A DNA stretch of 64,000 nucleotides from an uncultured delta proteobacterium (GTDB lineage Bacteria; Myxococcota_A; Polyangia; Polyangiales; B10-G4), in NCBI GenBank assembly GCA_963727445.1, contig CAVSGI010000013.1, positions 17,316 through 81,315 on the forward strand. Direction: 5' to 3'. Below are positions 4,569-24,160 of the stretch, in pieces. Under the pieces are notes generated by a model. The model was not told the origin of the DNA and ran no database searches. It saw nothing but the letters and a program-made list of their open reading frames with translations. The position numbers and the translations under genes are program-made. Positions within the stretch are counted from its first letter, which is position 1. Each line of letters starts with the position of its first letter.

Positions 4569-6272
4569 TCAGGGCTCGTGGATCAAGTGGATGGGTTCCC
4601 TGACTCCTATCTGGGCGGTGGTCGACCAGATCCGAAGATCGTAGTCATTGACCTCCGGAATGCAGAAACCATTCGTGGTGTCGGTGATCACGCCACTCTG
4701 GGCAAAGAAGTTCACATCGGCGTCCAGGAAGAAGGCACACGGTCGTGTGTCCTTCACTTCGAAGGTGCGCACTTGAACGGCCGCACCCGCGCTGGCCTTG
4801 ATCCCCAAATTCGGGAACCGGGTAGGGACGACGAGATCGACGACTCGGAGATCGTTCCCCATCAACTCGCCTCCGGATGATACGTCGATGCCAATTCGGG
4901 CGAACGTTTGCAGGCGAGCGGCGTTGATGTCGAGAGTGCCTCCACCGACCTGGACCATGACGTCAGGCAGTCGGTCCCGAGGATTCGAGTCATCGACCTG
5001 AAGACCGTTGATCAACACGTCCTGGAGGAGCAGGTATCCCCCTTCCACCCAGACCGCGCGACCCAGGGGTGGATCCGGCGGCGTCCCGTGGGCGTCCCAC
5101 GGGACGCCTTCCACAGCCGGAAAGACGCTCGAGTAGAAGCGCGCATCGCCGGATAGCATGTGAACTCCCACCAACGTGCCGCCTTCGGCCCCTCCCCGAA
5201 CAATCGAGTTGCGCAGCTCCAGGCATGGCTCTTCGGTTTCGTCGCATTCGATGACGATGGCCTCGGGCTCCGGCTCGCCAGGCCCGGCACCGACGATGTC
5301 ATCGATGGCCGTGTGCTCCAACACGACCCTCGCCGTTTCGCTCACGCGCACCGCCCCCGATGGGCAGCGCGAGATCACCACGTCGACGGCGTCGAGCTCG
5401 GCGCTCCCGGAGACGGTCAAACACGGATCCGACTCGGCATCGATCTGAACGCCATGCAACGCGACCTTCGCTGCCCCGACGACTCGGATCGGACCGCGGA
5501 CGCGGCTCGCACGCATGGTCAGCTCGCCCTCCAGTCGCACCGGCCCTTCGACGATGCTGTCCTCGACGATCGAAGCGGTGCCCGAGTCCCAGAGCGCGTC
5601 CGAGGCCCCGTCCGGAGCGCGGATGGAAACGTCGCGGAGAAATGCGCCTTCGCCCTCCAGGCGTATCCCCGCCAACAACCGCGCTCGTGATGGGCAGGTG
5701 CCGTAGAGCGACGTCGCGCTCCCCAACACGACGGGCTCCGAGACCTCTCCGTCGAACAAGATCGTTTCGGCGGTTGGGTCGGCCGCCGCTTCAGCGATGG
5801 TGCCGTATGGCCGGTCGTAGCTCCCATCTCCTCCGGCTTCACCGACGCGTACGAAGCGCAAGCCATCCGGCTGGGGAAACGGAAGACTGCAGGCGTCGAC
5901 GCCGGACCGACTGACCACCGGAGCACATGCCGTCAGCCCGTCCCCCGCCGGCACCTGGAGATCGACCCCACACTCCTGGCTCCGGCCTTCGCCCCAGTTC
6001 CATGGCTCGCAGAAGTCGGCCGTGCGAATGGTGTCCAACTCGCCAAAGGTCCAGCCGCGGAAACACGTGCCCAATAGATTCACCTCCTTGACTTCGTCCG
6101 CCGTCGGGCAGAACCCGGTATGGGTGCAGTCGGGGTCGCCGCAATCGTATAGGCCATCGTCGTCGTTGTCCTCGGCGTCGAGGCACGCGACCTCGTTGTC
6201 TTCCGGGGCGATCCCGGAGCCACTGACGTAACTACAGCCGGCCAGCAGCAGGAACGGGAGGACGATCCTCAT
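4569..6272 (-). CDS. Lipoprotein with parallel β-helix-like repeats; the true start is the internal Met at 6272
   Basis: The ORF-track N-terminus (6272-6851) is R/P-rich shadow. The internal start MRIVLPFLLLAGCSYV has a lipobox, is preceded by GGGGGGAGGA, and overlaps the upstream stop as ATGA. There is an acidic Cys motif LDAEDNDDDGLYDCGDPDC and repetitive VxGxxxV segments typical of right-handed β-helix proteins. Confidence 0.6.
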   Translation of the reverse strand: MRIVLPFLLLAGCSYVSGSGIAPEDNEVACLDAEDNDDDGLYDCGDPDCTHTGFCPTADEVKEVNLLGTCFRGWTFGELDTIRTADFCEPWNWGEGRSQECGVDLQVPAGDGLTACAPVVSRSGVDACSLPFPQPDGLRFVRVGEAGGDGSYDRPYGTIAEAAADPTAETILFDGEVSEPVVLGSATSLYGTCPSRARLLAGIRLEGEGAFLRDVSIRAPDGASDALWDSGTASIVEDSIVEGPVRLEGELTMRASRVRGPIRVVGAAKVALHGVQIDAESDPCLTVSGSAELDAVDVVISRCPSGAVRVSETARVVLEHTAIDDIVGAGPGEPEPEAIVIECDETEEPCLELRNSIVRGGAEGGTLVGVHMLSGDARFYSSVFPAVEGVPWDAHGTPPDPPLGRAVWVEGGYLLLQDVLINGLQVDDSNPRDRLPDVMVQVGGGTLDINAARLQTFARIGIDVSSGGELMGNDLRVVDLVVPTRFPNLGIKASAGAAVQVRTFEVKDTRPCAFFLDADVNFFAQSGVITDTTNGFCIPEVNDYDLRIWSTTAQIGVREPIHLIHEP

Positions 6273-7576
6273 TCCTCCCCCCAGGAAACGGCCGCGCTCG
6301 AAGCGGGAACAGTGCTTCGATCTGTCACGAAGTAGAGGATGACGGCCAACCCGAGGAGCGCCGCGCCAGTGACGAACAGTACGTCGGTGGCGAGACCGAG
6401 GGAGTCGACGGTCCGAGCAGTGCCCGACGTGTCGACACCGAGGGCCTTGCTCTGCTCGAGGTTGGTGTGCTCGACCAGATTGGCAATCCCCGTTCCGACG
6501 GCTGTGAGGACGGCTGCCGCCCCGGCCCCCCCGACGATCCAGGTCCAAACGGAGCGCTCGGCAGGCACCGGCCGAAGCGTGACGTTGAGCCAGGCGCGAG
6601 CGTCGGCACGAGGAGACACCTCGCCCTCCCACGGTTGGAGCCCCGGGGCGCGGACCTCGACTCGCTGGGCGTTTGCGCGGAGGGCTGTGAGGGAAAGTGG
6701 AGTGAAGCCTATCTGCTGCCCAGCGATGCGCACCTCGGCGTTTCGCGCGTTGGAGGTGATCGTCAGGCTCCCGGTCGGGGCCGGGAGATCCTCCCGGCTC
6801 AGGTGCACGCGCTCCGTCTCGCTGGCGACTACGGAGGCGACCGTACGCCAAGGTGGATACCCGAGAGCACGAACGATGACGTCGTAGCGGCCAGGCGGAA
6901 GATCCGCCTCGAGCGGCACCTCACCCTCCGCCACCAGCGCTCCGGCGGCATCCAGCACTCGCGCGCTCGCCTCCAGCGCGGCGCCGATCTGCAGCCGCCC
7001 GAGCACGCGTTGCAGCTCGAGTCGAACGGTCGAGGCCTCACCGAGCACGGCGGTGATCGATTCTTCGGCTCCCCCATACCCATTCATCACGACCCAGATC
7101 CGATGCTCGCCCGGCGCCAGCGCGAGTTGCCGTGGCGTCTGTCCGTAAGAGCCGTGTTCCTCCTGGTCCACGTAGATCTCGGCGCCTGGCGGGTCGGTCT
7201 CCACGGTGACCCGGGCCACGCGCGGGATCAGCTGCTCGATCGATTGGCGGGCGTAGGCCTGTCGCTCTTCGGCTCCTTCGACGTCGTCCTCTCCCTCCAT
7301 GTAGGCGGTGAAGAAATGATAAGCCTCGACAGGTTGATCGAGCTGCATGAAGCAGAGGGCGATGTTGTAGAGCGTGCGCGGATTCGGGCTGAGCTGCTGC
7401 GCGGAAAAGAACTCCTCGATCGCCTGCTGGTAGCGGCCACGCGTGTAGTACCGCTGCGCTTCGCGGTGATGAAACCTCGCCATCGCCGCGGTGTCGGCGT
7501 GCGCCTCGTGCGTGAAGGCGAGGAACGTAGTCGCGATTGTCGCGACGAAGAGGAGGCCGCTCAGCCGAAGTCGCAT
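6269..7576 (-). CDS. Signal-peptide protein with N-terminal TPR-like region, two PEGA domains and a C-terminal TM anchor
   Basis: Signal peptide MRLRLSGLLFVATIATTFLAFTHEAHA. PEGA-like blocks 'VTVETDPPGAEIYVDQEEHGSYGQTP...HRIWVVMNGYGG' and 'LTITSNARNAEVRIAGQQIGFTPL'. C-terminal TM 'TWIVGGAGAAAVLTAVGTGIA'. Confidence 0.7.
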   Translation of the reverse strand: MRLRLSGLLFVATIATTFLAFTHEAHADTAAMARFHHREAQRYYTRGRYQQAIEEFFSAQQLSPNPRTLYNIALCFMQLDQPVEAYHFFTAYMEGEDDVEGAEERQAYARQSIEQLIPRVARVTVETDPPGAEIYVDQEEHGSYGQTPRQLALAPGEHRIWVVMNGYGGAEESITAVLGEASTVRLELQRVLGRLQIGAALEASARVLDAAGALVAEGEVPLEADLPPGRYDVIVRALGYPPWRTVASVVASETERVHLSREDLPAPTGSLTITSNARNAEVRIAGQQIGFTPLSLTALRANAQRVEVRAPGLQPWEGEVSPRADARAWLNVTLRPVPAERSVWTWIVGGAGAAAVLTAVGTGIANLVEHTNLEQSKALGVDTSGTARTVDSLGLATDVLFVTGAALLGLAVILYFVTDRSTVPASSAAVSWGEE

Positions 7577-7641
7577 CGCCGCGATGATAGACCGATTCTT
7601 TCACCGTGCGAGACCGCGTTTCGCGGTGTTATCCTCGTGCC

Positions 7642-8382
7642 ATGCGAGTCGCATTGGCTTTGGCTCTCGCGCTGCCGCTCTTCGGCTGCTCCGGTGACAG
7701 CGTGGGACATACGATCGAGTTCACGCTCAACGTGGAGTACTGGGACTTCGGTCCAGATCGCACCCCGGTTCCCGGGGCCGATGTGTGTGTCGACGAGCCC
7801 AGTGGTGGCGACTGCGGCACCTCGGACGCAGACGAAGTCGCAGTTCTCGACGTCCCGACGGACCAGAACGTTCTCCTCAGGATCAGCCATCCCACCATCT
7901 TTCCCGCGCTGGCTCCCATCTACGTGAGCTCTGACGACGAGGGTCGCTCGGACGTGGTCGATCCCTACTCCACCAACCTCGTGGCCGCGGTCGCAGCGAC
8001 CTTGGGCATGAGTGTCGACCCCACGAAGGGCCACCTGACCTTTGCTGCGGATCCCGGCGACTCGACCCATGCGGGCAGAATGGTGACGCTCCTCGATCCC
8101 GACACCGAAGAGCCGGTTTCCGATGCCAACGTGTTCTATCTGGACGAGGCGAATCTCCCCGATCCCATGGCGGACACGACCGTCGGCTCCGGCTCCGGCG
8201 GATTCGCCAACGCTCCCCCGGGGGAGTATTTCGTCGACTCGGTGTTCGACGAGCACTGCCGCATCGCTCGCGGGTGGAAGGAAGAGAAGGCTGACGGGAC
8301 CGTCACGATGCGCGCCCCCATCCGCGCCGGTCACATCACGCTGACCATCTGGGCCGACTGCATCAACACTGAATTCCCGTGA
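7642..8382 (+). CDS. Hypothetical lipoprotein
   Basis: Internal start MRVALALALALPLFGCSGD (lipobox). Diverse, non-shadow composition. Divergent from the PEGA gene across a 65-bp spacer. Confidence 0.55.
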   Translation: MRVALALALALPLFGCSGDSVGHTIEFTLNVEYWDFGPDRTPVPGADVCVDEPSGGDCGTSDADEVAVLDVPTDQNVLLRISHPTIFPALAPIYVSSDDEGRSDVVDPYSTNLVAAVAATLGMSVDPTKGHLTFAADPGDSTHAGRMVTLLDPDTEEPVSDANVFYLDEANLPDPMADTTVGSGSGGFANAPPGEYFVDSVFDEHCRIARGWKEEKADGTVTMRAPIRAGHITLTIWADCINTEFP

Positions 8383-8472
8383 GCGGCCTGCTCGGGGTCT
8401 GACGATGCGCGCAGGCGTCTCTTGCGCCTCGCCAGCGACCAGAGCGGAGTCCGTTTGTACTCGCGATCCCCT

Positions 8473-9298
8473 ATGCTGGTTGCGATGCGCGTCCTTTCGA
8501 TCATCGCGGTGCTCGTCGTCGCGGGCTGCAGCCGCAGCGAGCCAGCGACGGCGCCGCCGCCGGAGACGTCGCCGGTCGAGGAGACCGCGCCCGCCGAACT
8601 GCCGGCACCCACGTCTCCCACCATCGCCGTCACACGCGACGACTGCGAAGAGGTGGCCGCGCGCGCGGTCGACGTCGCGCCCATCATCGGCGTGGCAGTG
8701 GGCTCGCTGCGCGAGGCCGCCGGGGACGTGCCGGTCGCCTGTGACCGGGCCGTCCCTCGATGCGCGAGCGAAGACGATGGGACCACTTGTGCGTACGTCG
8801 TTCGCACTTACGACGCGTTTCATCGCGTCACCGTCTACCCGGCGGCCGCAGACGGCGGCCTGGTCGAAGGCACGGCCTTCGTCGCGCTTGACGGGACGGC
8901 CACCGAGCCGGCGCCCGAGCTCGACGTCCGCCGCTGGGCGGTCGAGGGCGACGTGCGCTGCCGCGGCGGAAGCCAACAGCACTCCTACGGACCAGCGACG
9001 CGCGGCGCACTCACCACCGGAAGCGCCGGCGTCACCTGCTGGACCCCCGAACCGTTCGATGTCACGGCCCAGCGCGTCACCACTCATTGGGCGCGCGGCG
9101 TCACCACTACCGAAGTCACCGTGGAGCCCGCCCGCACCCTCGGTGGCGAGCCCACCTCGAATCCGCGTCAGCTTCCCGCCGGCCCCGCTGCCCCTGCGCG
9201 AGTCCATCCCTCTCGAGGTCGAGCTCCGCATCGGTCCCCACGTCCTCGCGCCCGTCGGCCGCGTGACGACCCCCGAGCGCTATCCGATCCGGCGCTGA
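8473..9298 (+). CDS. Hypothetical lipoprotein with an apparent frameshift near 9160
   Basis: MLVAMRVLSIIAVLVVAGCSRSE lipobox. The frame opened at 8422 turns into R/P junk after '...TTEVTVEPARTLGGEPTS'. The adjacent frame that ends at 9298 is coding-like only over its last ~45 aa (RIRVSFPPAPLPLRESIPLEVELRIGPHVLAPVGRVTTPERYPIRR). Confidence 0.45.
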
Positions 9299-9426
9299 GA
9301 CGGAGCGCGCAACCGGACGCGGCCGCCATGCTGGCCTCCCTTCTTCGACGTCGAGCCAGGGACTCTGGCGCGCGGTATCCTCACGGGCGAGGGGGCGCGC
9401 GGCGCGTTTGAGCCGTTTTCGAGACC

Positions 9427-10113
9427 GTGTGGTCCTCATCACTCGTCGAGATGCCTCGAGCTACTGCATCCATCCTCGTCCGGGAGCCGACCCCCAAAGG
9501 GGAACCTCTCGATGCCGAGCGCGTGCTGGCGGCCGAGATCGCACCGGGATTCGACGACGCCACGCTCGTCCGGCGGGCCCTCGAGGGTGACACCTGGGCG
9601 GAAGAGGCCTTGTTTCGCCGCCATGTCCGGGTAATCGCCAGGACGGTGTTGCGACTTCTGGGCAATCGAAGCGAAGCGGAGGACGTCGTCCAGGACACCT
9701 TCGTTTCGGCGTTGGCCGACCTGCACAAGCTCCGGGATCCGTCCTCCGCTCGCACGTGGCTCATCGGGATCGCCGTTCACCGGGTCCACCGCCGGTTTCG
9801 CCGTCAGAAGCTGCGGCGGCTCCTCGGTCTCGAGCGCGCGTCCGAGGGGCCGCTCGAGCGACAGGCGAGCCCAGGACTAGACCCGGAGCGGCGCGCGGAG
9901 CTGGCCCTCCTCGATGCACAGCTCGAGCGCTTGCCCGCGAAGGATCGAACGGCGTGGATCCTCCGCAACGTCGAGGGCATGTCCCTCAAGGAGACCGCCG
10001 ACGCCATCGGCTGCTCCCTCGCGACAATCAAACGGCGCATCGCGAAGGCCGAGGCCGCAATCCGCGCTCACGTGGACCTCGCGCCACCATTGTCGGAGGT
10101 CTCCGATGGCTAG
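9427..10113 (+). CDS. ECF (σ70 group 4) RNA polymerase sigma factor
   Basis: Region-2-like 'EDVVQDTFVSALADLHKLRDPSSARTWLIGIAVHRVHRRFRR' and region-4 HTH 'RTAWILRNVEGMSLKETADAIGCSLATIKRRIAKA'. GTG start at 9427. Alternative ATG at 9451. Confidence 0.8.
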   Translation: MWSSSLVEMPRATASILVREPTPKGEPLDAERVLAAEIAPGFDDATLVRRALEGDTWAEEALFRRHVRVIARTVLRLLGNRSEAEDVVQDTFVSALADLHKLRDPSSARTWLIGIAVHRVHRRFRRQKLRRLLGLERASEGPLERQASPGLDPERRAELALLDAQLERLPAKDRTAWILRNVEGMSLKETADAIGCSLATIKRRIAKAEAAIRAHVDLAPPLSEVSDG

Positions 10114-11278
10114 GCTCTCTCGACCCGTGGACCAGCACCTCGACGATCCCGTCAACGAGGAGATGATGTACCGCCTGTGGCGCGGGGTGGGGCAGGCCCG
10201 CGCGGCTGCGCGGGGACAGAAGCCGTCTCGTTGGTTGATGCCTGCGCTCACCGGGGTCGGCGTCGGCGCGCTCGCCCTGGCGGCGCTGCTCTTCACTCTG
10301 CCGCCCAGCAGGGGGCCGGAGCCCCTTTCGCTCGCGACAAACGAGGCGCTTCCGAGCACCCTCAGCGCTGGCGCAGAGCCAGAGCACCTGCGTCTCTCCG
10401 ACACGTCCGAGATCGCGCTCGCGCCGGACACCGAGCTCCAGCTGGTCACGAACCATCGTGGCGTCTTCGAGACGCGCCTTCTTCGCGGCGTCGTCTCCAT
10501 GGACGTCACCCCCGGTGGTCCCCGACGATACCGCGTCGATTGCGGGCTCGCGCTGGTCGAGGTCGTCGGCACGCGGTTCGAGATCGAGCGGAGCGAAGCC
10601 GCGGTGGCCGTCCGGGTCTCGCGGGGGCGCGTGCGCGTCACAGACAGGGTGCGGTCGCGGGTGAGGGAGCTGGGTCCTGGCGATTCGTGGGCCATCCTCG
10701 CGGCACCGAGCGAGGCCGTCGCGCCGGCGCCGTCCCACCCGCCGGCCGCGCCCAGCCCAACGCCATCGTCGACGCGCGAGCCGAGCCCACCTCCGTCGAC
10801 TGGCTGGCGGCAGCTCGCCGCTCAGGGCCGCTGGGACGAAGCGTGGGACGAAGTGGGACCCGCGCGGATCGCGGCGCGCGCTCGGGCCGCGGACGGCGAC
10901 GAGCTCCTCGCCCTCGCCGATGTCGCACGTCAGTCGGGTCATCCAGAAGCGGCGGTAAGGCCGCTCGAGACGCTGCTGTCGCGCTATCCGAACGACGCGC
11001 GGGCCGGACTGGCCGCCTATACCCTCGGCATCCTCCGAATGGATCGCCTCGACCAACCGGCGGAAGCGGCGGAAGCCTTCGAGCGCGCGCTGTCGGCGGG
11101 GTTGCCGGAGCATCTCGTCGAGCACGCGATGGGCCGCCTCGCCGTCGCCCATCACCGCGCGGGAGAAGACGACGCCGCGCACACCGCCGCGCGACGCTAC
11201 CTGGCGCGGTTTCCCGATGGGCCGATGGCCCAGGACGTGAGAGCCTACGCGCGGGGGGGCGACGAATTCGATCCATGA
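10106..11278 (+). CDS. Anti-sigma factor (FecR-like) with a single TM helix
   Basis: Start MARLSRPV overlaps the σ-factor stop by 8 nt. TM 'WLMPALTGVGVGALALAALLFTL'. FecR-like β-rich segment 'GTRFEIERSEAAVAVRVSRGRVRV'. TPR-like C-terminus. Confidence 0.7.
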   Translation: MARLSRPVDQHLDDPVNEEMMYRLWRGVGQARAAARGQKPSRWLMPALTGVGVGALALAALLFTLPPSRGPEPLSLATNEALPSTLSAGAEPEHLRLSDTSEIALAPDTELQLVTNHRGVFETRLLRGVVSMDVTPGGPRRYRVDCGLALVEVVGTRFEIERSEAAVAVRVSRGRVRVTDRVRSRVRELGPGDSWAILAAPSEAVAPAPSHPPAAPSPTPSSTREPSPPPSTGWRQLAAQGRWDEAWDEVGPARIAARARAADGDELLALADVARQSGHPEAAVRPLETLLSRYPNDARAGLAAYTLGILRMDRLDQPAEAAEAFERALSAGLPEHLVEHAMGRLAVAHHRAGEDDAAHTAARRYLARFPDGPMAQDVRAYARGGDEFDP

Positions 11279-12405
11279 GGCGGCTGCGCTCATCGACCGT
11301 CGGCACGCTCGGCGGCACGGTGCTCGCGCTCTGGATGGCGACCGCCACTGCGCGCGCCGACGAGCCGACCCCGATGCCCGCGCGCGTCGCGGTGCAGCCT
11401 CCCGGCTGTGAGCTCACCGTGGAGGAGATCGTACGCCTCCTTCGGATCGAGCTCACCGGGGACGGGGTGAGCGACGTCTCAATCTCGTCCTCCGATGGCG
11501 AACATGCGCTTGGGGAAGAGGATAGCGACACGACCGCGGCGATCGTGCGGCTGGAGGCGATCCCGTGCGAGCCAAGCGCGGTCGAGCTCGCCGTGACCAT
11601 CGACAATCTCGTCACGCACAAGCAGGTGCGCCGGGTCCTGTCGACGAGCGGTTTGCCCGAGGCGACCCGCGCTCGCGCCATCGCGCTCGGCATCGCCGAG
11701 CTGCTGCGCTCCAGCTGGGCCGAGCTGTCGCTCGCGGACGTTCAATCGTCGCCCCTGGCGGCGTGGCTCCGCACGCGCCTTCGCATCGAGCTCACGGACC
11801 GCTCGAGGGCCGCCGACACAGAGTCCACGGAAGCGCTCGCGACCCCCGAGCCCACCCCGACACCCGTCGACAAGCCGACCGCGCGGGTCCCTGCGCTCCT
11901 CGGCGCGGCGACGCTGGCCCTCACCGCGATGCCGAGCGGAGGAAGTGCCTCCATCGGTGGGGCCCTCGACGGCGCGTTTCGGCTCCTGGTGGACGCCTTC
12001 GCGCTTCGCGTGGAGATCGCCGCGCAGCTCGGTCGCGCCGAGGCGCGGCTGGGCGGTGTCGATCTCGGCATGGCCACCCTCGCGCTGATCCCCGAGCTTC
12101 GCAGCCCCATGGGCCCGGCGCTCTTCGCCGTCGGCCCGAGCGTGACACTGGGTGTCGGCTGGGCGAGTGGTCAGCCCGACCCCGGTATCGACGCGTCGTC
12201 GGGTGCCGAGCTCATCGTCTCGGCGGGGGCGGAAGTGCGCGTGCTCTTTCCGCTCACCAGCCAACTCTGGGGCACCTTCGGCCTGTCCGGGGGGTACATG
12301 GTTCGCGGCCTGTCGACCGTCGTCGACGCGGCCCCCGATGGTGGCCTCGTCGGGCCCTACGTCGCGCTGCGCGTCGGCATCGCCCTTTCGTCGAGGGGAT
12401 CATGA
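11275..12405 (+). CDS. Secreted hypothetical protein, co-operonic with the ECF σ/anti-σ pair
   Basis: ATG at 11275 overlaps the anti-σ stop as ATGA. Signal peptide MRRLRSSTVGTLGGTVLALWMATATARA. The ORF-track N-terminus (10177-11274) is shadow. Confidence 0.55.
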   Translation: MRRLRSSTVGTLGGTVLALWMATATARADEPTPMPARVAVQPPGCELTVEEIVRLLRIELTGDGVSDVSISSSDGEHALGEEDSDTTAAIVRLEAIPCEPSAVELAVTIDNLVTHKQVRRVLSTSGLPEATRARAIALGIAELLRSSWAELSLADVQSSPLAAWLRTRLRIELTDRSRAADTESTEALATPEPTPTPVDKPTARVPALLGAATLALTAMPSGGSASIGGALDGAFRLLVDAFALRVEIAAQLGRAEARLGGVDLGMATLALIPELRSPMGPALFAVGPSVTLGVGWASGQPDPGIDASSGAELIVSAGAEVRVLFPLTSQLWGTFGLSGGYMVRGLSTVVDAAPDGGLVGPYVALRVGIALSSRGS

Positions 12406-13595
12406 GACGGCTGCTGCTGATCGCGCTTCTGCTCGCCATCGGCTGCGCGGACGCTCCCGTCGAAGTCCTCGGCCGGGCGCCTCCCACCTACTGGGGCGAC
12501 GTCGCCCCGGTCCTCGGGCCCTCGTGCACCTGCTGCCACCAACCCGGTGGCTCCGCGCCGAGCCTCGCCTCCCCCGAAGAGCTGGGCCTGTATTTTGACG
12601 ACGCCCTGCGCACGATCGCCGAGGGTTCGATGCCCCCGCTGCCCGCCGGGCCGGCCACCGAGGGCTGCGCCATGAAGCAGCCAGAGGCCCCGCGCCTCTC
12701 GGCCGCCGCGGTGGCGCTGCTTCAGCGTTGGGACGACGGGGGGCGCTCGCCGGGTGATCCCGCGTCGGCCCCCCCGCTGCCGGCGACCTGCCGCCCACCG
12801 CCCGCGGACGCGGAGACCATCGCGGTCACCGTGCCCCCGTTCGACCTCGGCGCCGAGCGAGTCTTGACGGTTTGCTTTGCCGTCGATTTCGATCGACCCG
12901 TGGACCGATACGTCACGGGCCTACGCGTTCAAAGCGCGCCGCAGACGCTGCGCGCGCTCGCTCTCTACGTCCCCGATGCATTCGACCTCGCCGACGCCGA
13001 CGGTGAGCCTTGTCCGGCGTACGACCCCTTCACAACTCCCGTCCTGGCGGCGACCTGGGGAGGTGAATCCGAGATGCGCTACGACGACGGCGGCGTACCC
13101 CTGCCGCGCGACGGGCCCCTGGCCATCCGCGCCGTGTATGACCTCACCTTCGCAGATGGCGACGCGCGCCCGAGGCCCGTCGACCTCGAGATCGAGCTTC
13201 GCCCCGAGAGCTCCGTGTCACTGGTGGACCACTTGATTCTGAGCGTGGATGCCGATCTGCCTCTCGAGGCGGGCGGGATCCGAGAGAGGGGGACTGTCGG
13301 TAGCTTCGTCGCGCCCCGGCGCATCGTCGGCGCATTCATGGTGATGCACGAGCTCGGCCAGCGCGTGGAGGTCGAGCTCCGCCGAGACGGAGATGAGACC
13401 TGTCGGATCGTCGACGATCCCTTCGAGGTCGGGTGGGTCAGACCGGTGGTCTTCGAGCCGCCATTCCCCCTCGTCGATGAGTTCGCGCTGCGGTGCCGAT
13501 GGGACCTGAGCGGACAGAGCGAGGACGTCCCCTTCGGCAACCCCCCGCAAGGGGAAGCCTGCCTCGCGCTGTTCCTCGCCGAAGCGCCTCCATGA
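12402..13595 (+). CDS. Lipoprotein with an N-terminal CxxCH cytochrome-c-like module and a degenerate PHM-like domain that has lost its copper ligands
   Basis: ATGA overlap with the previous gene. Lipobox MRRLLLIALLLAIGCADA. 'WGDVAPVLGPSCTCCHQPGG...MPPLP' aligns with the N-terminus of 13610-14797. The positions of HH, H, HxH and M in the paralog are replaced here (TLRALALYV, IRAVYDL, MVMHELGQR, GEACLALF). Confidence 0.6.
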   Translation: MRRLLLIALLLAIGCADAPVEVLGRAPPTYWGDVAPVLGPSCTCCHQPGGSAPSLASPEELGLYFDDALRTIAEGSMPPLPAGPATEGCAMKQPEAPRLSAAAVALLQRWDDGGRSPGDPASAPPLPATCRPPPADAETIAVTVPPFDLGAERVLTVCFAVDFDRPVDRYVTGLRVQSAPQTLRALALYVPDAFDLADADGEPCPAYDPFTTPVLAATWGGESEMRYDDGGVPLPRDGPLAIRAVYDLTFADGDARPRPVDLEIELRPESSVSLVDHLILSVDADLPLEAGGIRERGTVGSFVAPRRIVGAFMVMHELGQRVEVELRRDGDETCRIVDDPFEVGWVRPVVFEPPFPLVDEFALRCRWDLSGQSEDVPFGNPPQGEACLALFLAEAPP

Positions 13596-13609
13596 CGTCA
13601 AAGCGTGCG

Positions 13610-14797
13610 TCACCCCTCCTCCGCGAAAACGAACGCGAGGCACATCTCGTCCTCGGTGCCGGTGCCGAAGATGACGGGGTCGGCGGTGGTGTTGTCGAAG
13701 GTGCAGTGGAGCCGGATTTCGTCGTTTGGACCGACTTCGACGGGCTCTTGGAAGAAGTAGTAGCTCTGCCAGTCGAAGTCCCACGCGGGTACGTCGACGA
13801 GGGTGCGTTCAGCGCCTCCCCCCACAGGCACGAGAGAGACGGTGATGCGCCGGCCGAGGAGGTGCATGTGGGGGAAAACGCCGTAGAGCGTGCGAGGACC
13901 GATGAGCACCTGCTGGTCGACTTCGTACCCCACTGTGCGTGGGGGAATCGAAAAGCTCGTCTCGGCGATCAGGAGCGAGCGCGCGGGCCGCTCAACCGAA
14001 GGCACGGTCTGGAGCTGAACCTCGGCCGGAGCCACGACCGGCTCGGCGAGCGGGTGGTAGTGCACCTGCACGACGAACGGCTGGTCCGCCCCCACGCGCA
14101 CGCCGGTTCCGGGCGGGAAGCGCGACGCCCGCTCGCCCGGGGCCCAACCACCCACCATTCGCGTGCCGAACACGCCCGCGTCGCCAAAGCACGAATAGCC
14201 GGGCCCGGCCTCGCTCTCGTCCCTCGCGCGCGCCGCTGCGGCCGCGCTCTCGTCCACGGTCGCGAAGAGGATGATGTGATGGACCACCCGTGTATCGCCG
14301 GGGATGACCTCGAGCGCGGTGACGTAAGCGTCTCGCGGTGGACCCTCGGCGACGAAACAACGGTAGTCATCGTCGACGCCTGCCGGGGGAACGTACTCGG
14401 CGCCGACCTCGAAGACGAAATCCGGTGACTCGAGCTCCGTGGTCGGCGGCGTCAGAGCCATGCCAGTGCCAATCTCGGGCCCGCGCGCGAGCCACGCCAG
14501 CAGTGCGTCGCGCTCCTCGCCGGGCATGATTCGGGTATCGTCGAGGGGCACGCACCCCTCGCAGGTCGCGGGCGGAAAGGGGGGCATCGTTCCATCGGCG
14601 ATCACGGAGGCGACCAGTGATGCCCGCGGCGCGAAGTCCGCCGCTTCGGTGAGCGGAAAGGGTGCGATGCCGGCTTGGTGGTGGCAGCCGATGCATCGCC
14701 GCGCCACGATCGGTGCGACATCCGCCCAGCCGGTCTCCGCGTCGGGTGCGCAGGCGCTGAGGACGCCGAGCAACGAGAGGAGCGCGCCGTGTTTCAT
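13610..14797 (-). CDS. Lipoprotein combining a c-type cytochrome-like CxxCH module with a PHM/DBH-type copper type II monooxygenase core
   Basis: Lipobox MKHGALLSLLGVLSACA. 'DVAPIVARRCIGCHHQAGIAPF...DGTMPPFPP' is a CxxCH motif with an MPP Met ~30 aa downstream. 'YRCFVAE', 'VHHIILFA', 'GGWAPGERASRFPPGTGVRVGADQPFVVQVHYHP', 'FPHMHLLGR' and 'GTGTEDEMCLAF' parallel the PHM motifs VHHMLLFGC, ...FRVGGETGSKYFVLQVHYGD, H-x-H and TSSDEMCNLY. All six Cu ligands (HH+H, HxH+M) are present. Confidence 0.7.
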   Translation of the reverse strand: MKHGALLSLLGVLSACAPDAETGWADVAPIVARRCIGCHHQAGIAPFPLTEAADFAPRASLVASVIADGTMPPFPPATCEGCVPLDDTRIMPGEERDALLAWLARGPEIGTGMALTPPTTELESPDFVFEVGAEYVPPAGVDDDYRCFVAEGPPRDAYVTALEVIPGDTRVVHHIILFATVDESAAAAARARDESEAGPGYSCFGDAGVFGTRMVGGWAPGERASRFPPGTGVRVGADQPFVVQVHYHPLAEPVVAPAEVQLQTVPSVERPARSLLIAETSFSIPPRTVGYEVDQQVLIGPRTLYGVFPHMHLLGRRITVSLVPVGGGAERTLVDVPAWDFDWQSYYFFQEPVEVGPNDEIRLHCTFDNTTADPVIFGTGTEDEMCLAFVFAEEG

Positions 14798-14905
14798 GTC
14801 CCGTGGGGACCATGACGCGCGCGCAATGGCTCATCTACACGTGAGCCGTTCGACACGGCTGGGGGTCCTCATGCACATGTCAGGGAACGTCGGTCGCGAG
14901 GGGGG

Positions 14906-16456
14906 GTGCCCATGAGGGGGGTTGCGTTCGCGTGGGGAATGCTGGTGCTCGCGGCGGCGTGCGGCGACGGCACGGGTGGGGGGGACGACACGGGGACGAT
15001 GGACACGGCACCCGACATAGTCGAAGGGGGAACGGACGCGGACAGCGGACCTCCGCCGGGCCTCGACGACCGCTGTCTTCCCCTGTGGGAGGCGGCGGTC
15101 GGCGCGGCCGAGAGGTACGGGGCGGCCGGTGGGGGCTTCGCGCTCGTACTGGAGGGTGCGCTGGTCTGTACGGTTCCCTACGGAGCGGAGCGTCGCGAGT
15201 CCGGGTCCCCGCTGGTGACGACCGAGACCTGGTTCCGCTGGCCGCAGTGGGACGGCCTGGTCATGAAGCTCGCCGCGCTCGAGCTCGCCGACGCAGGAGC
15301 GCTGGACCTGGATGCGTCGGTCGAGTCGCTCGTCGGCGATCTCGACCTCGAGCCGGCGGTGTGGGCCAGCGCGCTCACGGTTCGACATCTCGTCTGGGGT
15401 CGGTCGGGGCTGCCTTCTACAGCCCCCCCTTTCGCGGGACATGTGGACTTCGGGGAGGCATGTGCCGAAGACGGGCCGAGCGCACGACAGTGGTGGGACG
15501 CCTTCGAAGACGGCGGGCGGGTCATGTGGGCAGAGCCGGGCTTCACACACACGTACGGGCGGAACGAGGGCGTCCTGTTGCAGCTCGTGCTCGAAGAGGT
15601 GACCGGCGAGAGCGTCGCCGACACGATCCAGCGCACGATCTTCGACCCGGTAGGCATGGACAATTCCCGTATCGGCTTCGGGCCGGAGCATCACGAACGA
15701 CAGATGTATGGGTATGTGACCAGCGACATCTCCACGGACACCGTCACGCGCCTCGACCACCTGGTGAACGCCTGCGGCGCGGCGTTGGGCACCTTCGGTT
15801 TGACGACGACCCTCGACGACGCCGCGCGGCTCACCCTGACCCTCGCCCGGGGCGGCGTCGACGAAGGCGGCGCGCGCGTGCTCGCGGAGAGCAGCATGGC
15901 GGCGCTCGTGGAGCCGCGCGGCCCGACCTGGAACAACTTCGAGGTGGCCGCCGGGCCGGTGGTGTACCTCCACGAGGGCGCTCCCTTGTTGCACACGCCC
16001 TCGCACCTCGCGGGCTTCAGCGGCGGCGTCACCCTCGTGCCCGACGCGGGCTTCGGGGTGATCGAGCTGAGCAATCTGGACTACTGGCGCATACGGCATG
16101 TGGCCGAGGTGGCGGCGGTCGAGCGCTACGTGGGCGCGCCCTGGCCCAACGCCAACTACGAGGTACCCATGCCCTGGGAACCCTCCGACATGGAGCTTTC
16201 GGAATACGCAGGCGCCTACGTCGCTCCCATCGGGTGCCTCGAGGACTCGATCGAGCTGCAGGACGGGCGACTCGTGGCGCGTGGATTCGCCCTCGTGCCG
16301 CGTACGCCGGATCGATTCAAGAGCCCTGCTGGGCACCTGGCGTTCTGGCGGCGGGACGGGGCCATCGCCGAGTTGCTGTCGCCTGCGGACGAGTTCGCGT
16401 TCTACCCCGTGGACGCCGTACCGCCGGAGATCGCAGCCCTGGCCTCGTGTCCGTGA
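14906..16456 (+). CDS. Lipoprotein of the β-lactamase / serine-hydrolase fold, apparently lacking the SxxK nucleophile
   Basis: Lipobox MPMRGVAFAWGMLVLAAACGDG. 'YGRNEGVLLQLVLEEVTGESVADTIQRTIFDPVGMDNS' matches the class-C β-lactamase/esterase block (YxN...GxS...IFxPLGM). The expected 'FxIGSxSK' position reads 'FRWPQWDGLVMK' with no Ser. Confidence 0.6.
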   Translation: MPMRGVAFAWGMLVLAAACGDGTGGGDDTGTMDTAPDIVEGGTDADSGPPPGLDDRCLPLWEAAVGAAERYGAAGGGFALVLEGALVCTVPYGAERRESGSPLVTTETWFRWPQWDGLVMKLAALELADAGALDLDASVESLVGDLDLEPAVWASALTVRHLVWGRSGLPSTAPPFAGHVDFGEACAEDGPSARQWWDAFEDGGRVMWAEPGFTHTYGRNEGVLLQLVLEEVTGESVADTIQRTIFDPVGMDNSRIGFGPEHHERQMYGYVTSDISTDTVTRLDHLVNACGAALGTFGLTTTLDDAARLTLTLARGGVDEGGARVLAESSMAALVEPRGPTWNNFEVAAGPVVYLHEGAPLLHTPSHLAGFSGGVTLVPDAGFGVIELSNLDYWRIRHVAEVAAVERYVGAPWPNANYEVPMPWEPSDMELSEYAGAYVAPIGCLEDSIELQDGRLVARGFALVPRTPDRFKSPAGHLAFWRRDGAIAELLSPADEFAFYPVDAVPPEIAALASCP

Positions 16457-16905
16457 GACCGGGGGGTGACCGGACCGGGGGGGGGAGATCGTGACCGGGT
16501 TGGCGGGGGGGCGGGGAGATCGTGACCGGGTTGGCGGCGCGACGGATGACGCTGAACGACGCTTCGCGCGCCATGAAGAGGTCAGTTGTGTGAGCATGAG
16601 CGCCCGGCGCGTCTCCAACCGCACAGCAGAAGCGGAATCGACCGCTGTCAGGGGGAGATCGGACCGGGGGGAGATCGTGACCGGGTTGGCGGCGCGACGG
16701 GGAGATCGTGACCGGGTTGGCGGCGCGACGGATGACGCTGAACGACGCTTCGCGCGCCATGAAGAGGTCAGTTGTGTGAGCATGAGCGCCCGGCGCGTCT
16801 CCAACCGCACAGCAGAAGCGGAATCGGCCGCTGTCAGCAGTGTTCTCTCTGTCGCAGGTCCTCGGCGAATACACCGATGCGTGTCCGCGCTTCGCGCAGA
16901 CACAC
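16457..16905. repeat. Tandemly duplicated transposon-flanking repeat array
   Basis: 'ggggagatcgtgaccgggttggcgg' occurs four times in full and twice in part. A ~135-bp unit (ggagatcgtgaccgggttggcggcgcgacggatgacgctgaacgacgcttcgcgcgccatgaagaggtcagttgtgtgagcatgagcgcccggcgcgtctccaaccgcacagcagaagcggaatcg[a/g]ccgctgtcag) is duplicated at ~16516-16650 and ~16695-16830. A subterminal imperfect hairpin sits at 16871-16912 (acaccgatgcgtgtc ... gacacacatcggtg). Confidence 0.8.
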
Positions 16906-16935
16906 ATCGGTGCCCGACGGGCGCCGCGATGATCG

Positions 16936-18039
16936 CTACGAAGGCGGGGGCCGGCGCTTGGGCGCGGGTGCGACGCGCACGCCGTGGTGCACACGCATCC
17001 ACCACGTGCCGTGAGGGAAGACGACGCGGCGGTCGCCCGCCGTCCAGCGCGCGAGCTTGGCGTCGTAGGTGGCCTCGAAGTCGCGCGCTTCCTCGATCGC
17101 GGCGAGAGCGGCGTTCAGGTCGCCCCCAGCCTTGAAACGCGGGTTGAGCTTGCCGAAGAGCTCCCAGCTCTTGGCCCTGGCGGTGCGCGGGACGCGCACA
17201 CAGCGGCGAGCGCCCTTGAATGCGATGCCTTCCTGTGCCGCCTCGGCATGGGCGGCGCGCTCGTACTCCCGAACGCTCTCGGCGATGCGCGCCCGCGCGC
17301 CGCGCTCGCCATAGGCGGCGATGAGCTGCTCGGGCATCTCGAGGCGGAGCTCTGCGCTCTCGGGCCAGTCGGGGTTTTCGGGGTCGAAGTATCCGTCGGG
17401 GCGTGTGGCTTTGATGACGCGCCTGCCGATGTCGCCGGGGAGCGTCTTGGCCCCGGGCCAGTCCTTGGCGTAGCGGACGGCGAAGGCGGACACGGCATTG
17501 GCGATGAGGTAGGCGATGTCGTCGACGAGCGCGTCCGCGGTCAACGGCTCGTGCTCGCCCTTGAGGTATTTGTTGAAGACCTCCTCGGGCCAGCCGAGCA
17601 GCGCCTTCATCCCCTGCGCAAACGTGCGATGAAAGTCGCGCTTGAAGTCGGGCTGCACGCCGCGCACGTCGGTGTAGACGAGGTGGATGTGCGTCGACAT
17701 CAGTATCGCGGCATGAACGCGGACGCCGTGCTTGTTCGCGGCCGCCGCGAGGCAGTACCAGAAGAGATTTTCGACCTGGCGATGCTCGTCTGGGCGGAAC
17801 AGGAAGTAGCGGCGCGTCGTGCGCCGGACCGTCGTCCAGACCTTGCCCTTGATCACGCGCTTGCGGCGCGTACGCATGCGCCGGCTGCGCAGATGTCGGT
17901 CATAGGTATTTGTCGGCTTGCGGAGCGCGCCCATGCCGACCCGGCGCTGCCAGAAAGGCGCCAGAAATCGGCGACGTGATTTCGAGCACTTGCGCCGAAA
18001 AAACGGCGAACCCTCCGCCACCCGCCGGCGGTCCGCCAC
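16936..18039 (-). CDS. HUH-family (IS200-like / REP-associated tyrosine) transposase
   Basis: HUH motif 'MSTHIHLVYT'. Tyr-containing 'VDDIAYLIANAVSAF' resembles the RAYT YxxxNPV motif. Arg/Lys-rich N-terminus. A likely true start is the ATG at 17934 (MGALRKPTN...). Confidence 0.6.
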   Translation of the reverse strand: MADRRRVAEGSPFFRRKCSKSRRRFLAPFWQRRVGMGALRKPTNTYDRHLRSRRMRTRRKRVIKGKVWTTVRRTTRRYFLFRPDEHRQVENLFWYCLAAAANKHGVRVHAAILMSTHIHLVYTDVRGVQPDFKRDFHRTFAQGMKALLGWPEEVFNKYLKGEHEPLTADALVDDIAYLIANAVSAFAVRYAKDWPGAKTLPGDIGRRVIKATRPDGYFDPENPDWPESAELRLEMPEQLIAAYGERGARARIAESVREYERAAHAEAAQEGIAFKGARRCVRVPRTARAKSWELFGKLNPRFKAGGDLNAALAAIEEARDFEATYDAKLARWTAGDRRVVFPHGTWWMRVHHGVRVAPAPKRRPPPS

Positions 18040-18138: not shown

Positions 18139-19311
18139 CTACTGCGAAAACTTCCCGCTCTGGAACACGTGCCCCAGCAGCTGGTCGACGCGCGCCGTCC
18201 ACTCCTGCGCCGGCTGGGTGCCCATCGCCTGAAGCGCCGCCTTGATCTCGTTGAGCGCCTTCAAGTGACTGAAGAGCTGGATGTCGCTCATCGGCCGGTC
18301 GCTGGTCAGCAGACCCTTGATGCGGTTGATCTCGCTGATGAGCGCGTCCATCCCGACGTCGGCGGCGCCGAAGCGCCGCGCCTGCGGGTGCTCGCGGTAC
18401 CACGCTTCGAGCACCGGCCCCACGATCCCGTCCAGGATCTCCGCCTGGTCGAGGTTGTTCCACGTGTGGCGCAGCACGAAGAAGTCGCTCGGATCGGACT
18501 GCGCCCGCCCGTCGAGGAGCGCGCTCGCAGCGAAGAGCTTCAGCATCTTGATCGCGCGGCGGTCGGAGAAGCTCACGCCCTCGGAGCGGATCTGGAAGAT
18601 CAGCCCCTTGTAGCCCGCGAGGAACTCCTCGCTGAACTGCATCCTCTCGGCGAAGCCCGCGTGCAGCCCGTGCAGCTCCTGCGCCGTCAGCAGCGGCTGC
18701 AGCCGATCGTAGTTGCCGCTGATCTTCGACACCTCGTGCGCGATGCCCTTCAGCAGCAGATCGTGGAAGTGATAGCTGTCGAGGTTGTCCGAGTGCACGC
18801 GCAGCAGGAAGCGGTCGAAGACCGCCATCAGATCCTCGTCGTTCGGCACCTCGTTCGACGCCCCGAAGGCGCTGATCAGCGGCACGCGGAACGTCTTGCC
18901 GCCCACCGTGTAGAGCCGCTCGTTCAGCACGCTCAAGAGCGAGTTGAGGATCGCGCTGTTCGCCTTGAAGACCTCGTCCAGGAACGCGATCTCCGCCTGC
19001 GGCAGCATCCCGTCCATGCGCCGCTCGTACTGCCCCTCGCGGAACTTCTGGATGTCGATGGGACCGAAGAGCTCGTTCGGCTCCGTGAAGCGCGTCAGCA
19101 GATACTCGAAGTAGTTCGCCTGGACGAGCTTGGAGAAGAGCCGGACCAGCGCGCTCTTGGCCGTGCCGGGCGGGCCGATGAGCACCATGTGCTCGCCGGC
19201 GATGGCGGCGATCATCATCAGCCGCACCACCTCGCTCTTGCCGAGGAAGGTGCTCTCGAGCTGGCGAGCCACCTGCTGGAGCTTCTGGGCAGTCTGTGTC
19301 GGGTTGCTCAC
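18139..19311 (-). CDS. MoxR-family AAA+ ATPase, RavA-like
   Basis: Walker A 'LIGPPGTAKS', Walker B 'IAFLDEVFKA', and 'AILNSLLSVLNERLY...SNEVP'. Long colinear similarity to the E. coli RavA N-terminal AAA+ module (YERSHAIRL.../[57 protein letters not shown]). GTG start overlaps the upstream stop. Confidence 0.75.
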   Translation of the reverse strand: MSNPTQTAQKLQQVARQLESTFLGKSEVVRLMMIAAIAGEHMVLIGPPGTAKSALVRLFSKLVQANYFEYLLTRFTEPNELFGPIDIQKFREGQYERRMDGMLPQAEIAFLDEVFKANSAILNSLLSVLNERLYTVGGKTFRVPLISAFGASNEVPNDEDLMAVFDRFLLRVHSDNLDSYHFHDLLLKGIAHEVSKISGNYDRLQPLLTAQELHGLHAGFAERMQFSEEFLAGYKGLIFQIRSEGVSFSDRRAIKMLKLFAASALLDGRAQSDPSDFFVLRHTWNNLDQAEILDGIVGPVLEAWYREHPQARRFGAADVGMDALISEINRIKGLLTSDRPMSDIQLFSHLKALNEIKAALQAMGTQPAQEWTARVDQLLGHVFQSGKFSQ

Positions 19312-20462
19312 GGGTGTACCTCGGGGGTCAGTCCATCTCGTTCGTGGTCGAGGCGTGGCGGCTCAGCGTAGTCTACGAGCGCGACGGCGCGCCCAGAGGC
19401 CTCGGACCCGGCCATCGAGTCGAGCTCCCCCGCACGCTTGCGTAACACCAACAGGTCGTCGGGGTCGAGGTCGAGGAGCGCACCGAGGTCGTCGGGCGCC
19501 CCCACCATGGCCGGAAGAACCGCGACGAAGAGGCGCCCGGCCTCGTCGGCTGGACGCCCGAAGACAGGCTCTTTGCCCGCACGCGCGTCGAGAACCGCGA
19601 TCACGTGCGCCTCGTAGATCAGCGCGAGGAGATAGAAGAGGAGGCGCGGTGGCGGCCGCTGAGCGGCGAGGGTCCCGAGCGCCTGGCCGAGGGGCGACAT
19701 CACGGAGGGACCCTGCGACACCAGGTTCCGGGCGATGCCGTTGCGGACCAGATCGTCCGAGAGGACGGCGAGCGCCGCCAGCCCGACGGTGGGCGTGCCG
19801 AATAGATCGGTGTGCAGGATCTCGGTGACCGGCGAGCGATGCACCAGCTCACGCACGCGCCGGCTGATCGACAGCTCGGCGTCGAGCTCTTCGAAGAGGG
19901 CGAGGATGCCGTGCTCGGACTTGTCCTGGCGCACCATCCTCAGGCGCGGCATCGCCACCACGCGCGGCGGCACCGGGCGACCGAAGAAGCGATAGGTGTA
20001 GGCCCAGTTCTTCACCACCACGTCGGTGCGCGACATGGTGACGAAGCGCGACAAGAAGACGTGGCGCGCCAGCGCCTCGCCGCGAGTGGAGGGCGCGCCC
20101 GCCGCGTCGATGAGCCAGTCGGCGTAATCGAGCGCCTTCTTGCGCGCGCCGCGCGAGAACATCCGGTCGAGCTTCGGATCGGTCACGGCGACGAGGTTGT
20201 GCGCCGCCATCACCAGCGCCATCACGCCGCGCTCGGGCCACACCAACGCGCGAAGCGGGGCTATCTCGGACGCCTCGGCGTGCATCAGGTCGTAGATCTC
20301 GCGGTCGATGGTGGCGTCGGCGCTCGACGCCAGGCTGAAGTGCTCGAGCATGCCCGGCGTGAGCGGCTGCCCAGCGACCGCCGCGCCGCCCGCCAGGAGC
20401 GGATGGAGGAAGTCGGCGGCGAAGGAGTCGAAGCGCGCCTGCATCTTGGTGGCGTCGCTCAT
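19308..20462 (-). CDS. Hypothetical protein, middle gene of the RavA-like operon
   Basis: 384-aa ORF of non-shadow composition. Stop overlaps the RavA-like GTG. Start overlaps the upstream gene stop (20459-20462). No recognisable motifs. Confidence 0.55.
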   Translation of the reverse strand: MSDATKMQARFDSFAADFLHPLLAGGAAVAGQPLTPGMLEHFSLASSADATIDREIYDLMHAEASEIAPLRALVWPERGVMALVMAAHNLVAVTDPKLDRMFSRGARKKALDYADWLIDAAGAPSTRGEALARHVFLSRFVTMSRTDVVVKNWAYTYRFFGRPVPPRVVAMPRLRMVRQDKSEHGILALFEELDAELSISRRVRELVHRSPVTEILHTDLFGTPTVGLAALAVLSDDLVRNGIARNLVSQGPSVMSPLGQALGTLAAQRPPPRLLFYLLALIYEAHVIAVLDARAGKEPVFGRPADEAGRLFVAVLPAMVGAPDDLGALLDLDPDDLLVLRKRAGELDSMAGSEASGRAVALVDYAEPPRLDHERDGLTPEVHP

Positions 20463-24116: not shown

Positions 24117-24160
24117 GCGCCTCCCGAGCGCCTCGGCGCCATGGCTGGTAGGATGGGGCC

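Follow-up and report, generated by a model that had tools for sequence, protein, structure and literature searches.

A 64-kb stretch of contig CAVSGI010000013.1 from an uncultured delta proteobacterium (hereafter the window, whose positions we use throughout) carries six convincing genes within positions 9427-16456. Four genes on the forward strand encode a sigma factor of the extracytoplasmic function (ECF) type, a membrane anti-sigma factor with FecR and TPR domains, a secreted protein (gene 3) and a lipoprotein (gene 4). Convergent with gene 4 is a gene for an intact PHM-like copper monooxygenase (gene 5), followed on the forward strand by a gene for a lipoprotein with a beta-lactamase/DD-peptidase fold. 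We find that the sigma factor, the FecR-TPR anti-sigma factor, gene 3 and gene 4 are a conserved ECF module. Within it, gene 4 is a predicted non-catalytic paralog of the monooxygenase: it retains a lipoprotein signal, the motif for c-type heme and the PHM fold with its two domains, and both copper sites are gone.

The G+C content is about 70% across the whole window, and at third codon positions (GC3) it is 0.81 to 0.87 in all six genes. Gene 4 has an intact frame of 397 codons with a GC3 of 0.83, similar to that of its neighbors, and is thus a genuine coding frame. The overlaps reported in a preliminary description of this DNA are real when read from the sequence. The sigma gene ends with TAG at 10111-10113, overlapping by 8 nt the anti-sigma gene that starts with ATG at 10106 (ATGGCTAG), and ATGA overlaps join genes 2 and 3 at 11275-11278 and genes 3 and 4 at 12402-12405. 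Three details needed correction, the third of which, on the copper ligands, is given below. The preliminary description placed an ECF sigma gene at 9427; its identity stands (Pfam, NCBIfam), but the start is most likely ATG 9451 and not GTG 9427, because the source annotation calls ATG 9451 (and ATG 14912 for the beta-lactamase-fold gene) and because ATG 9451 agrees with the predicted promoter described below. The gap between genes 4 and 5, given as 15 bp, is 14 bp (stop codons at 13593-13595 and, on the minus strand, 13610-13612). This spacer between the convergent stop codons (13596-13609) lacks a terminator and has no unusual structure (RNA fold z-score -0.29). Neither terminator-like sites nor sigma-70-type promoters were found in 9000-15200, and a scan of 9000-17500 gave no match to any Rfam family. 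The ATG of gene 4 has a Shine-Dalgarno-like GAGGGGA upstream. The overlaps and the absence of internal promoter motifs suggest that the four genes would be translationally coupled and carried on a single transcript.

Gene 5 and its copper-less paralog, gene 4

PHM and DBH, the textbook examples of non-coupled two-copper monooxygenases, have to our knowledge been described almost exclusively from eukaryotes. Gene 5 (13610-14797, minus strand) encodes a cytochrome c-fused, PHM-like copper monooxygenase with six copper ligands, and it carries a lipobox (GVLSAC, read from sequence). It matches the Pfam families Cu2_monoox_C (1.2e-12) and Cu2_monooxygen (3.9e-8). Against rat PHM (1opm; E 1.4e-9), the positions H107, H108, H172, H242, H244 and M314 are all present, with the paired histidines in VVHHIILF, the next in QVHYH, the HxH pair in HMH and the methionine in DEMC. 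Its fold, sequence and ligands all place gene 5 in the PHM/DBH superfamily. It has 833 homologues at 34-42% identity with the same architecture, some of them with C-terminal AhpC/TSA redoxin fusions, and their source names include 'monooxygenase', 'ascorbate-dependent monooxygenase' and 'mono/diheme cytochrome c family protein'. Among the top 120 of the 833, all copper ligands are kept except in P0074, where His172 is replaced by Tyr. Judging from these homologues, nothing sets gene 5 apart within a bacterial family of cytochrome-c-fused PHM-like proteins.

The two-beta-sandwich core of PHM and DBH (PF01082, PF03712) is common to genes 4 and 5, and the ligands of gene 5 match those of rat PHM. 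The bacterial proteins differ from PHM and DBH in being lipoproteins with an N-terminal monoheme cytochrome c domain, which we infer to replace ascorbate as the electron donor. The literature that we searched held no paper characterising bacterial heme-fused PHM homologues. Gene 4 derives from this family; among the sampled intact members, those other than the locus partners showed no linkage to ECF systems.

Gene 4 (12402-13595, forward strand) encodes a lipoprotein (lipobox LLLAIGC, read from sequence) with a monoheme cytochrome c module and a PHM/DBH-fold body, and reaches no Pfam or NCBIfam family. Its homology to gene 5 extends well beyond the N-terminal module, with 28% identity over 385 residues in BLASTP (E 3e-16). 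The preliminary description held that every copper ligand had been replaced. This is correct for five of the six, the second histidine of HxH being kept: the columns of H107, H108, H172, H242, H244 and M314 read R, A, V, V, H and A. The whole CuH site (His107, His108, His172) is therefore lost to Arg, Ala and Val, and the CuM site (His242, His244, Met314) reads Val, His and Ala, so that two of its three ligands are missing. The retained histidine is not conserved among the closest relatives of gene 4, the clade that we call pseudo-A (column H, H, Y, Y, F, H). With neither copper site intact, gene 4 should not be annotated as a monooxygenase.

The heme module is kept, as the preliminary description had stated, with C42-T-C-C45-H46 followed by M77-P-P in the alignment. 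Ten key columns read CCHM-HHHHHM in 117 of 121 family sequences and CCHM-RAVVHA in gene 4. The other exceptions are P0005 and P0054, each with a gap in a heme-motif column, and P0074 with its Tyr at His172; apart from those two gaps, C42, C45, H46 and M77 are invariant across the 121 sequences. Genes 4 and 5 are thus full-length paralogs, one with all copper ligands and the other without five of the six, and the description of an enzyme and pseudo-enzyme pair holds at this level.

The PHM-like scaffold attributed to gene 4 is confirmed by the full-length homology and by structure prediction. Its AlphaFold model, built on an alignment of mostly intact homologues, has a mean predicted local distance difference test score (pLDDT) of 85.2 and a predicted template modelling score (pTM) of 0.80. 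The best Foldseek match is DBH (4zel; 4.7e-12), with PHM entries also found and about 280 columns superposed. A profile of the N-terminal module matched cytochrome c555 (5.9e-6) and c6 (0.008) in the PDB. The Pfam family Cytochrome_CBB3 was matched by 18 of 24 module members at E <=0.01, and the gene 4 module alone had no Pfam match. Gene 4, too, belongs to the PHM/DBH superfamily by descent and predicted fold.

A word-indexed search with gene 4 was empty. This is an artefact, because the protein (P0276) is filed in a 90%-identity cluster under a representative of 35 residues and is absent from the 50% representative library. An exhaustive HMMER search recovered the relatives, with 1678 family matches. 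The best were P0121 (8e-41), P0122, P0123, the fragment P0124 and P0128, all of which lack the copper ligands and keep CxxCH and the methionine. Together with gene 4 and a homologue in a Polyangiales bin (locus L002), they form one long-branched clade in a neighbor-joining tree, which is pseudo-A. In a profile search with the subfamily alignment, P0128 was the sole clade member matched, and the three other matches lay outside the clade. A search for related loci from an alignment recovered a single locus in a genome and three short ones in metagenomes.

Within pseudo-A, the catalytic domains evolve faster and the heme domain is as conserved as in the intact enzymes. Mean pairwise identity reaches 44% for the heme domain but 32% and 31% for the first and second PHM domains, compared with 43%, 45% and 39% among the intact proteins. 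Of the residues around the copper sites that show 90% conservation or more in intact proteins, nearly all are replaced, and the disulfide cysteines and core residues are kept. Invariant in the clade are C44 (in C-x-C-C-H), C130 (in a PPxCG linker), R243, P381, P382 and G384; P381-P382-x-G384 stands where intact proteins have G-T-x-D before the methionine ligand. Arg at the His107 position and D247 are usual. This pattern points to remodelling under selection and not to decay. The cysteines C44 (within residues 42-46, window 12525-12539) and C130 (window 12789-12791) are absent from intact proteins and might pair in an extra disulfide or make up a new site.

Distinct from pseudo-A is another clade of copper-poor, heme-keeping PHM-like proteins, pseudo-B (for example, P0159 and P0208), with ligand columns such as RHHRHE. 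Two of its members, on three contigs, are encoded directly downstream of a multicopper oxidase gene (L011 6298-7512, L012 8001-9170 and L013 1926-3095).

The sigma operon and its neighborhood in relatives

The sigma gene (9451-10113, forward strand; 220 residues, with an open frame reaching upstream to GTG 9427) matches Sigma70_r2 (3.9e-16), Sigma70_r4_2 (1.3e-11) and Sigma70_ECF in Pfam. In NCBIfam it matches sigma70-ECF TIGR02937 with 80.4 bits against a cutoff of 42.9. It has just the sigma-2 and sigma-4 domains, and the gene that overlaps it by 8 nt encodes a membrane anti-sigma factor with a FecR domain, which together identify an ECF (group IV) sigma factor. This anti-sigma gene (10106-11278, forward strand) matches FecR (1.3e-13) and TPR_14 (4.8e-9) in Pfam; its product has one hydrophobic segment at about residues 43-65 (read from sequence), a periplasmic FecR domain and C-terminal TPR repeats. 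Gene 3 (11275-12405, forward strand) encodes a secreted protein with a signal peptide ending ARA/DEP and an ATGA overlap at both ends. Nothing above threshold was found for it in Pfam, NCBIfam or PDB, including with a three-sequence profile, and its sole sub-cutoff Pfam match was HPTransfase (19.5 bits against a cutoff of 22.9). We discarded a single-sequence AlphaFold model of gene 3 (pLDDT 37.8).

As in FecI/FecR/FecA, an ECF sigma factor is here predicted to share a transcription unit with a single-pass anti-sigma factor bearing a periplasmic FecR domain. Unlike FecI/FecR/FecA, the locus has no recognised TonB-dependent transducer: no TonB-dependent receptor or Plug family matched in Pfam among the products from 6269 to 16456. 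The anti-sigma factor also differs from FecR in its very short cytoplasmic N-terminus and its added TPR repeats. In place of iron-uptake genes, the linked genes encode heme/copper and penicillin-binding-protein (PBP)-fold lipoproteins. The group ECF267 has FecR-like anti-sigma factors with TPR, lies far from the FecI clade, occurs in Proteobacteria and has a conserved protein kinase nearby (PMC7826278, Casas-Pastor et al. 2021). By description alone, it is the closest match to the sigma/anti-sigma pair and serves as a lead, although the conserved neighboring protein kinase of ECF267 was not identified at this locus. Note that 'envelope stress', the term used in the preliminary description, is a generic label for ECF sigma factors.

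The related loci and contigs (L002 to L010 and the P0124 contig) preserve parts of this arrangement. In L002 and L009, gene 3, the anti-sigma gene and the sigma gene all point away from gene 4, in the order gene 3, anti-sigma, sigma, gene 4. In L002, gene 4 is followed by a beta-lactamase-fold gene in the same orientation, and in L009 by a convergent intact paralog. In L008, a sigma gene is divergent from gene 4, which faces an intact paralog, followed by a forward-strand gene with an ASH domain. In L004, anti-sigma and sigma genes are divergent from gene 4. On the P0124 contig, gene 4 faces a Cu2_monoox_C fragment, so that a tail-to-tail pairing is probable. Gene 4 lies between two beta-lactamase-fold genes in L010, all in one orientation, and in L006/L007 it follows two small genes and precedes a beta-lactamase-fold gene, again in one orientation. 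Note that L003 and L004 carry the same sequence as L009; L004 repeats it here, so that the two are not independent observations.

Sigma orthologues thus lie beside the pseudo-A gene at four loci (L002, L004, L008 and L009; three distinct sequences), anti-sigma genes are visible at L002, L004 and L009, and gene 3 follows the anti-sigma gene at L002 and L009. Across six related contexts, the copper-less gene has a sigma gene beside it in four, and a beta-lactamase-fold gene or an intact paralog in three each. Compared with the window genes, the sigma genes at all four loci are 56-64% identical and the anti-sigma genes of L002 and L009 about 41%. The corresponding values are about 34% for gene 3 (33-35%), roughly 30% for the gene 4 relatives and roughly 31% for the beta-lactamase-fold protein. 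The tail-to-tail pair described in the window recurs in L008, L009 and the P0124 contig and not in L002, L006/L007 or L010; with the window included, it is seen in 4 of 8 contexts. In L008 and L009, the intact partner has every copper ligand. The gaps between the convergent copper-less and intact genes are 0-14 bp in the window, L008 (1938/1939) and L009 (6627/6628), and 53 bp on the P0124 contig.

The beta-lactamase/DD-peptidase-fold lipoprotein (14912-16456, forward strand; lipobox VLAAAC, read from sequence) matches the Pfam family Beta-lactamase (4.7e-20) and lacks the SxxK motif. Q-W-D-G stands opposite S62-V-T-K65 of the R61 DD-peptidase (1cef) and S-I-T-K of 2qmi. Four relatives (L002 5531-7078, L006 2973-4409, L010 3-1547 and L010 2773-3939) read SLNE, SGWA, YLQA and SLQR, with Lys in none. 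The protein is a predicted second conserved pseudo-enzyme, and its gene probably belongs to the same regulon as the sigma operon. It comes after the copper-less PHM gene in three related contexts, and in the window gene 5 intervenes.

Just downstream of the beta-lactamase-fold gene, positions 16480-16837 hold a 186-bp tandem duplication (1.9 copies, 97% match) with nested 31-bp G-rich repeats (GGGGAGATCGTGACCGGGTTGGCGGCGCGAC). Farther on, 18139-19311 (minus strand) encodes an AAA ATPase of MoxR type (Pfam bpMoxR, 1.7e-77), as in the MoxR-vWA-beta-propeller ternary systems, followed on the same strand by two open reading frames (19308-20462 and 20459-22504) with no Pfam match. Upstream of the operon are a gene for a TPR/PEGA-domain protein (6269-7576, minus strand) and two lipoprotein-like open reading frames with no Pfam match (7606-8382 and 8422-9411, forward strand). 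None of these three has a counterpart in the related loci.

A shared promoter-like motif

An alignment of the relatives' intergenic regions between sigma and gene 4 with two intergenic regions of the window revealed an invariant GAGCCG. The derived pattern, GAGCC-N17-GTCCNCA, has exactly three matches in 64 kb, compared with 0.10 expected, and none of 100 shuffles reached three. The exact-pattern matches are at 9410-9438 (forward strand), 14843-14871 (forward strand) and 14832-14804 (minus strand). Since the pattern was derived from the first two, the third alone is independent. The full predicted ECF-type promoter of the sigma operon (9409-9438, forward strand) consists of TGAGCCG at 9409-9415, a 16-nt spacer and GTCCTCA at 9432-9438, and lies 12 nt before ATG 9451. 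That of gene 5 (14804-14833, minus strand; TGAGCCA, 16-nt spacer, GTCCCCA) lies 6 nt before ATG 14797, and that of the beta-lactamase-fold gene (14842-14871, forward strand) reads TGAGCCG, a 16-nt spacer and GTCCTCA. The preliminary description had placed genes 4 and 5 under ECF control, and the search for a sigma motif was positive both upstream of the sigma gene and upstream of gene 5, with the same bipartite motif at each. Its predicted -35 box is GAGCC, where the common ECF form is GGAAC. We infer that the motif would be the sigma factor's own promoter.

Eleven equivalent sites occur in L002, L008 and L009, in the form GAGCCG, 15 nt, and GCATCC or GCGTCC. In all three loci they lie before sigma and before gene 4, on opposite strands. 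They also occur before the beta-lactamase-fold gene in L002 (5482-5508). In L008 and L009, further sites precede the intact paralog, at 4 nt from its ATG, and the gene divergent from that paralog. The motif is thus seen at fixed spacing in four distinct sequences (the window, L002, L008 and L009). Only the full bipartite pattern is specific: the 7-mer TGAGCCG and short gapped patterns alone were not enriched. An extra site found with a looser pattern (24151-24177) was taken as chance, with no plausible downstream gene and 4.65 matches expected.

The -35 boxes of gene 5 and the beta-lactamase-fold gene stand back to back, forming the palindrome GGCTCA-N8-TGAGCC at 14828-14847. We considered this as the operator of a dimeric regulator and rejected it, because the spacing between such half-sites varies (2, 8 and 21-24 nt) and the distance from -35 to -10 is fixed, which favors two promoters over one operator. 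No further copy of the motif was found inside the four-gene operon, which fits a single transcript without proving it. Several start codons lie 4-6 nt past the predicted -10 box (window 14797, L008 745 and 3129, L002 4296 and L009 7830). This suggests leaderless mRNAs, with that of gene 5 probably among them. In L008 and L002, the motif suggests that the true start of gene 4 is an internal GTG instead of the called start.

Function of the copper-less paralog

The locus looks like a conserved ECF regulon that would join one intact heme-copper monooxygenase with two catalytically dead lipoproteins. For gene 4 itself, our preferred though still tentative reading is that of a non-catalytic protein which bears heme and serves as accessory or partner within an envelope module under ECF control. 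The sigma factor would recognise the bipartite promoter (about TGAGCCG, 14-15 nt, nGRTCC) and from it would drive the four-gene operon to which it belongs, gene 5 in convergent orientation and the lipoprotein with the beta-lactamase fold, whose gene is divergent from gene 5. The products of secreted gene 3, gene 4, gene 5 and the beta-lactamase-fold gene are predicted to reside at the envelope and could act together there. The heme of gene 4 would stay redox-active. Its former active-site cleft appears remodelled, with Arg at H107, Arg243, Asp247 and a PP-G motif before the former Met, and we propose that it serves partner or ligand binding instead of O2 activation. Where a tail-to-tail intact paralog is present, gene 4 would most likely work with it as a redox relay or regulatory partner. 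Note that genes 4 and 5 are convergent and barely separated, so that if the same sigma factor drives both, their 3' transcript ends should collide or overlap.

Several points weigh against this accessory role. The intact enzymes carry their own heme, so that the need for a second, separate relay is not obvious. In L002, L006/L007 and L010, the copper-less gene has no intact paralog next to it, so that its function cannot strictly depend on an adjacent partner, and a partner may lie elsewhere in those genomes. Gene 5 is 39-40% identical to the L008 and L009 partners and falls apart from them in the neighbor-joining tree; this low identity and separate clustering make their orthology uncertain. 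Gene 4 is itself about 28-30% identical to other pseudo-A members. Its structural model, given the intact homologues that dominate the alignment, confirms the fold and is not independent evidence for it, and only one of the three promoter-like sites is independent of the pattern.

In a second reading, which we regard as possible but unlikely, gene 4 would be the point where the signal enters the system: a lipoprotein of the periplasm that senses redox state, a gas or a ligand through its heme and, possibly with gene 3, acts on the FecR-TPR anti-sigma factor to set the sigma factor free. The outputs would then be the intact enzyme and the protein with the beta-lactamase fold. This would account for the sigma gene being among the commonest neighbors of the copper-less gene, in the same operon or divergent (L002, L004, L008 and L009), and for the heme domain being the best-conserved part of gene 4. 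It would also suit a former active site rebuilt with conserved charged residues and a locus in which the usual partner of FecR, a TonB-dependent transducer, is not recognised. However, gene 4 of the relatives has its own sigma-type promoter, as output genes do (although autoregulated sensors exist), and in L006/L007 and L010, which are short contigs, neither a sigma nor an anti-sigma gene is present in the visible DNA.

The conserved residues that fill the former copper sites also bear on a third reading, which we consider improbable, namely that gene 4 is an enzyme with altered chemistry. It might be a heme peroxidase or oxygenase, or might have built a new metal or thiol site from C44 and C130. 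The two clade-invariant cysteines absent from intact proteins, the conserved Arg and Asp at the former copper sites, and the kept fold and disulfide cysteines would all be compatible with catalysis. Yet the His/Met heme motif is typical of electron-transfer cytochromes and leaves no open coordination site, the positions lining the cleft vary within the clade, and C44 and C130 could form a plain extra disulfide.

That gene 4 is a functionless, decaying duplicate placed in the operon by accident is scarcely credible and largely refuted by conservation: the lack of a Pfam or NCBIfam match, the long branch and the identity of about 28% to its closest relatives would fit decay, but the 397-codon frame (GC3 0.83) is intact, all heme-motif residues and disulfide cysteines are retained, the Shine-Dalgarno-like GAGGGGA precedes its ATG, and at least five other contigs carry orthologues with the same losses, the same invariant residues and conserved synteny.

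An accessory role for gene 4 can be compared with 'prozyme'-type pseudo-enzymes, inactive paralogs that partner active enzymes. Like these, gene 4 is predicted to be dead, conserved, encoded beside an active enzyme and co-regulated with it. It differs in keeping a redox cofactor and in occurring also without an adjacent active paralog. A more specific form of the accessory reading, to which we give little weight, is that genes 4 and 5 form a heteromer, which the dead PBP-fold lipoprotein may join. In such a complex, the heme of gene 4 would gate or supply the second electron and its remodelled cleft would present a peptide-like envelope substrate. If true, this would be an ECF-induced periplasmic machine for oxidative peptide modification, in which two dead enzymes accompany a single live one. 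Prokaryotes would then have their own counterpart of peptide alpha-hydroxylation, in which a built-in cytochrome replaces ascorbate.

The locus is an accessible entry to an uncharacterised bacterial branch of PHM, with a sigma/anti-sigma pair and a predicted promoter. Gene 4 would provide a natural control protein, in which the heme and the fold are kept and the copper sites are gone. Three questions thereby become testable: how electrons enter a PHM-type enzyme without ascorbate, what the substrates of such enzymes are in the bacterial envelope, and why one regulon would keep dead copies of two different enzyme folds.

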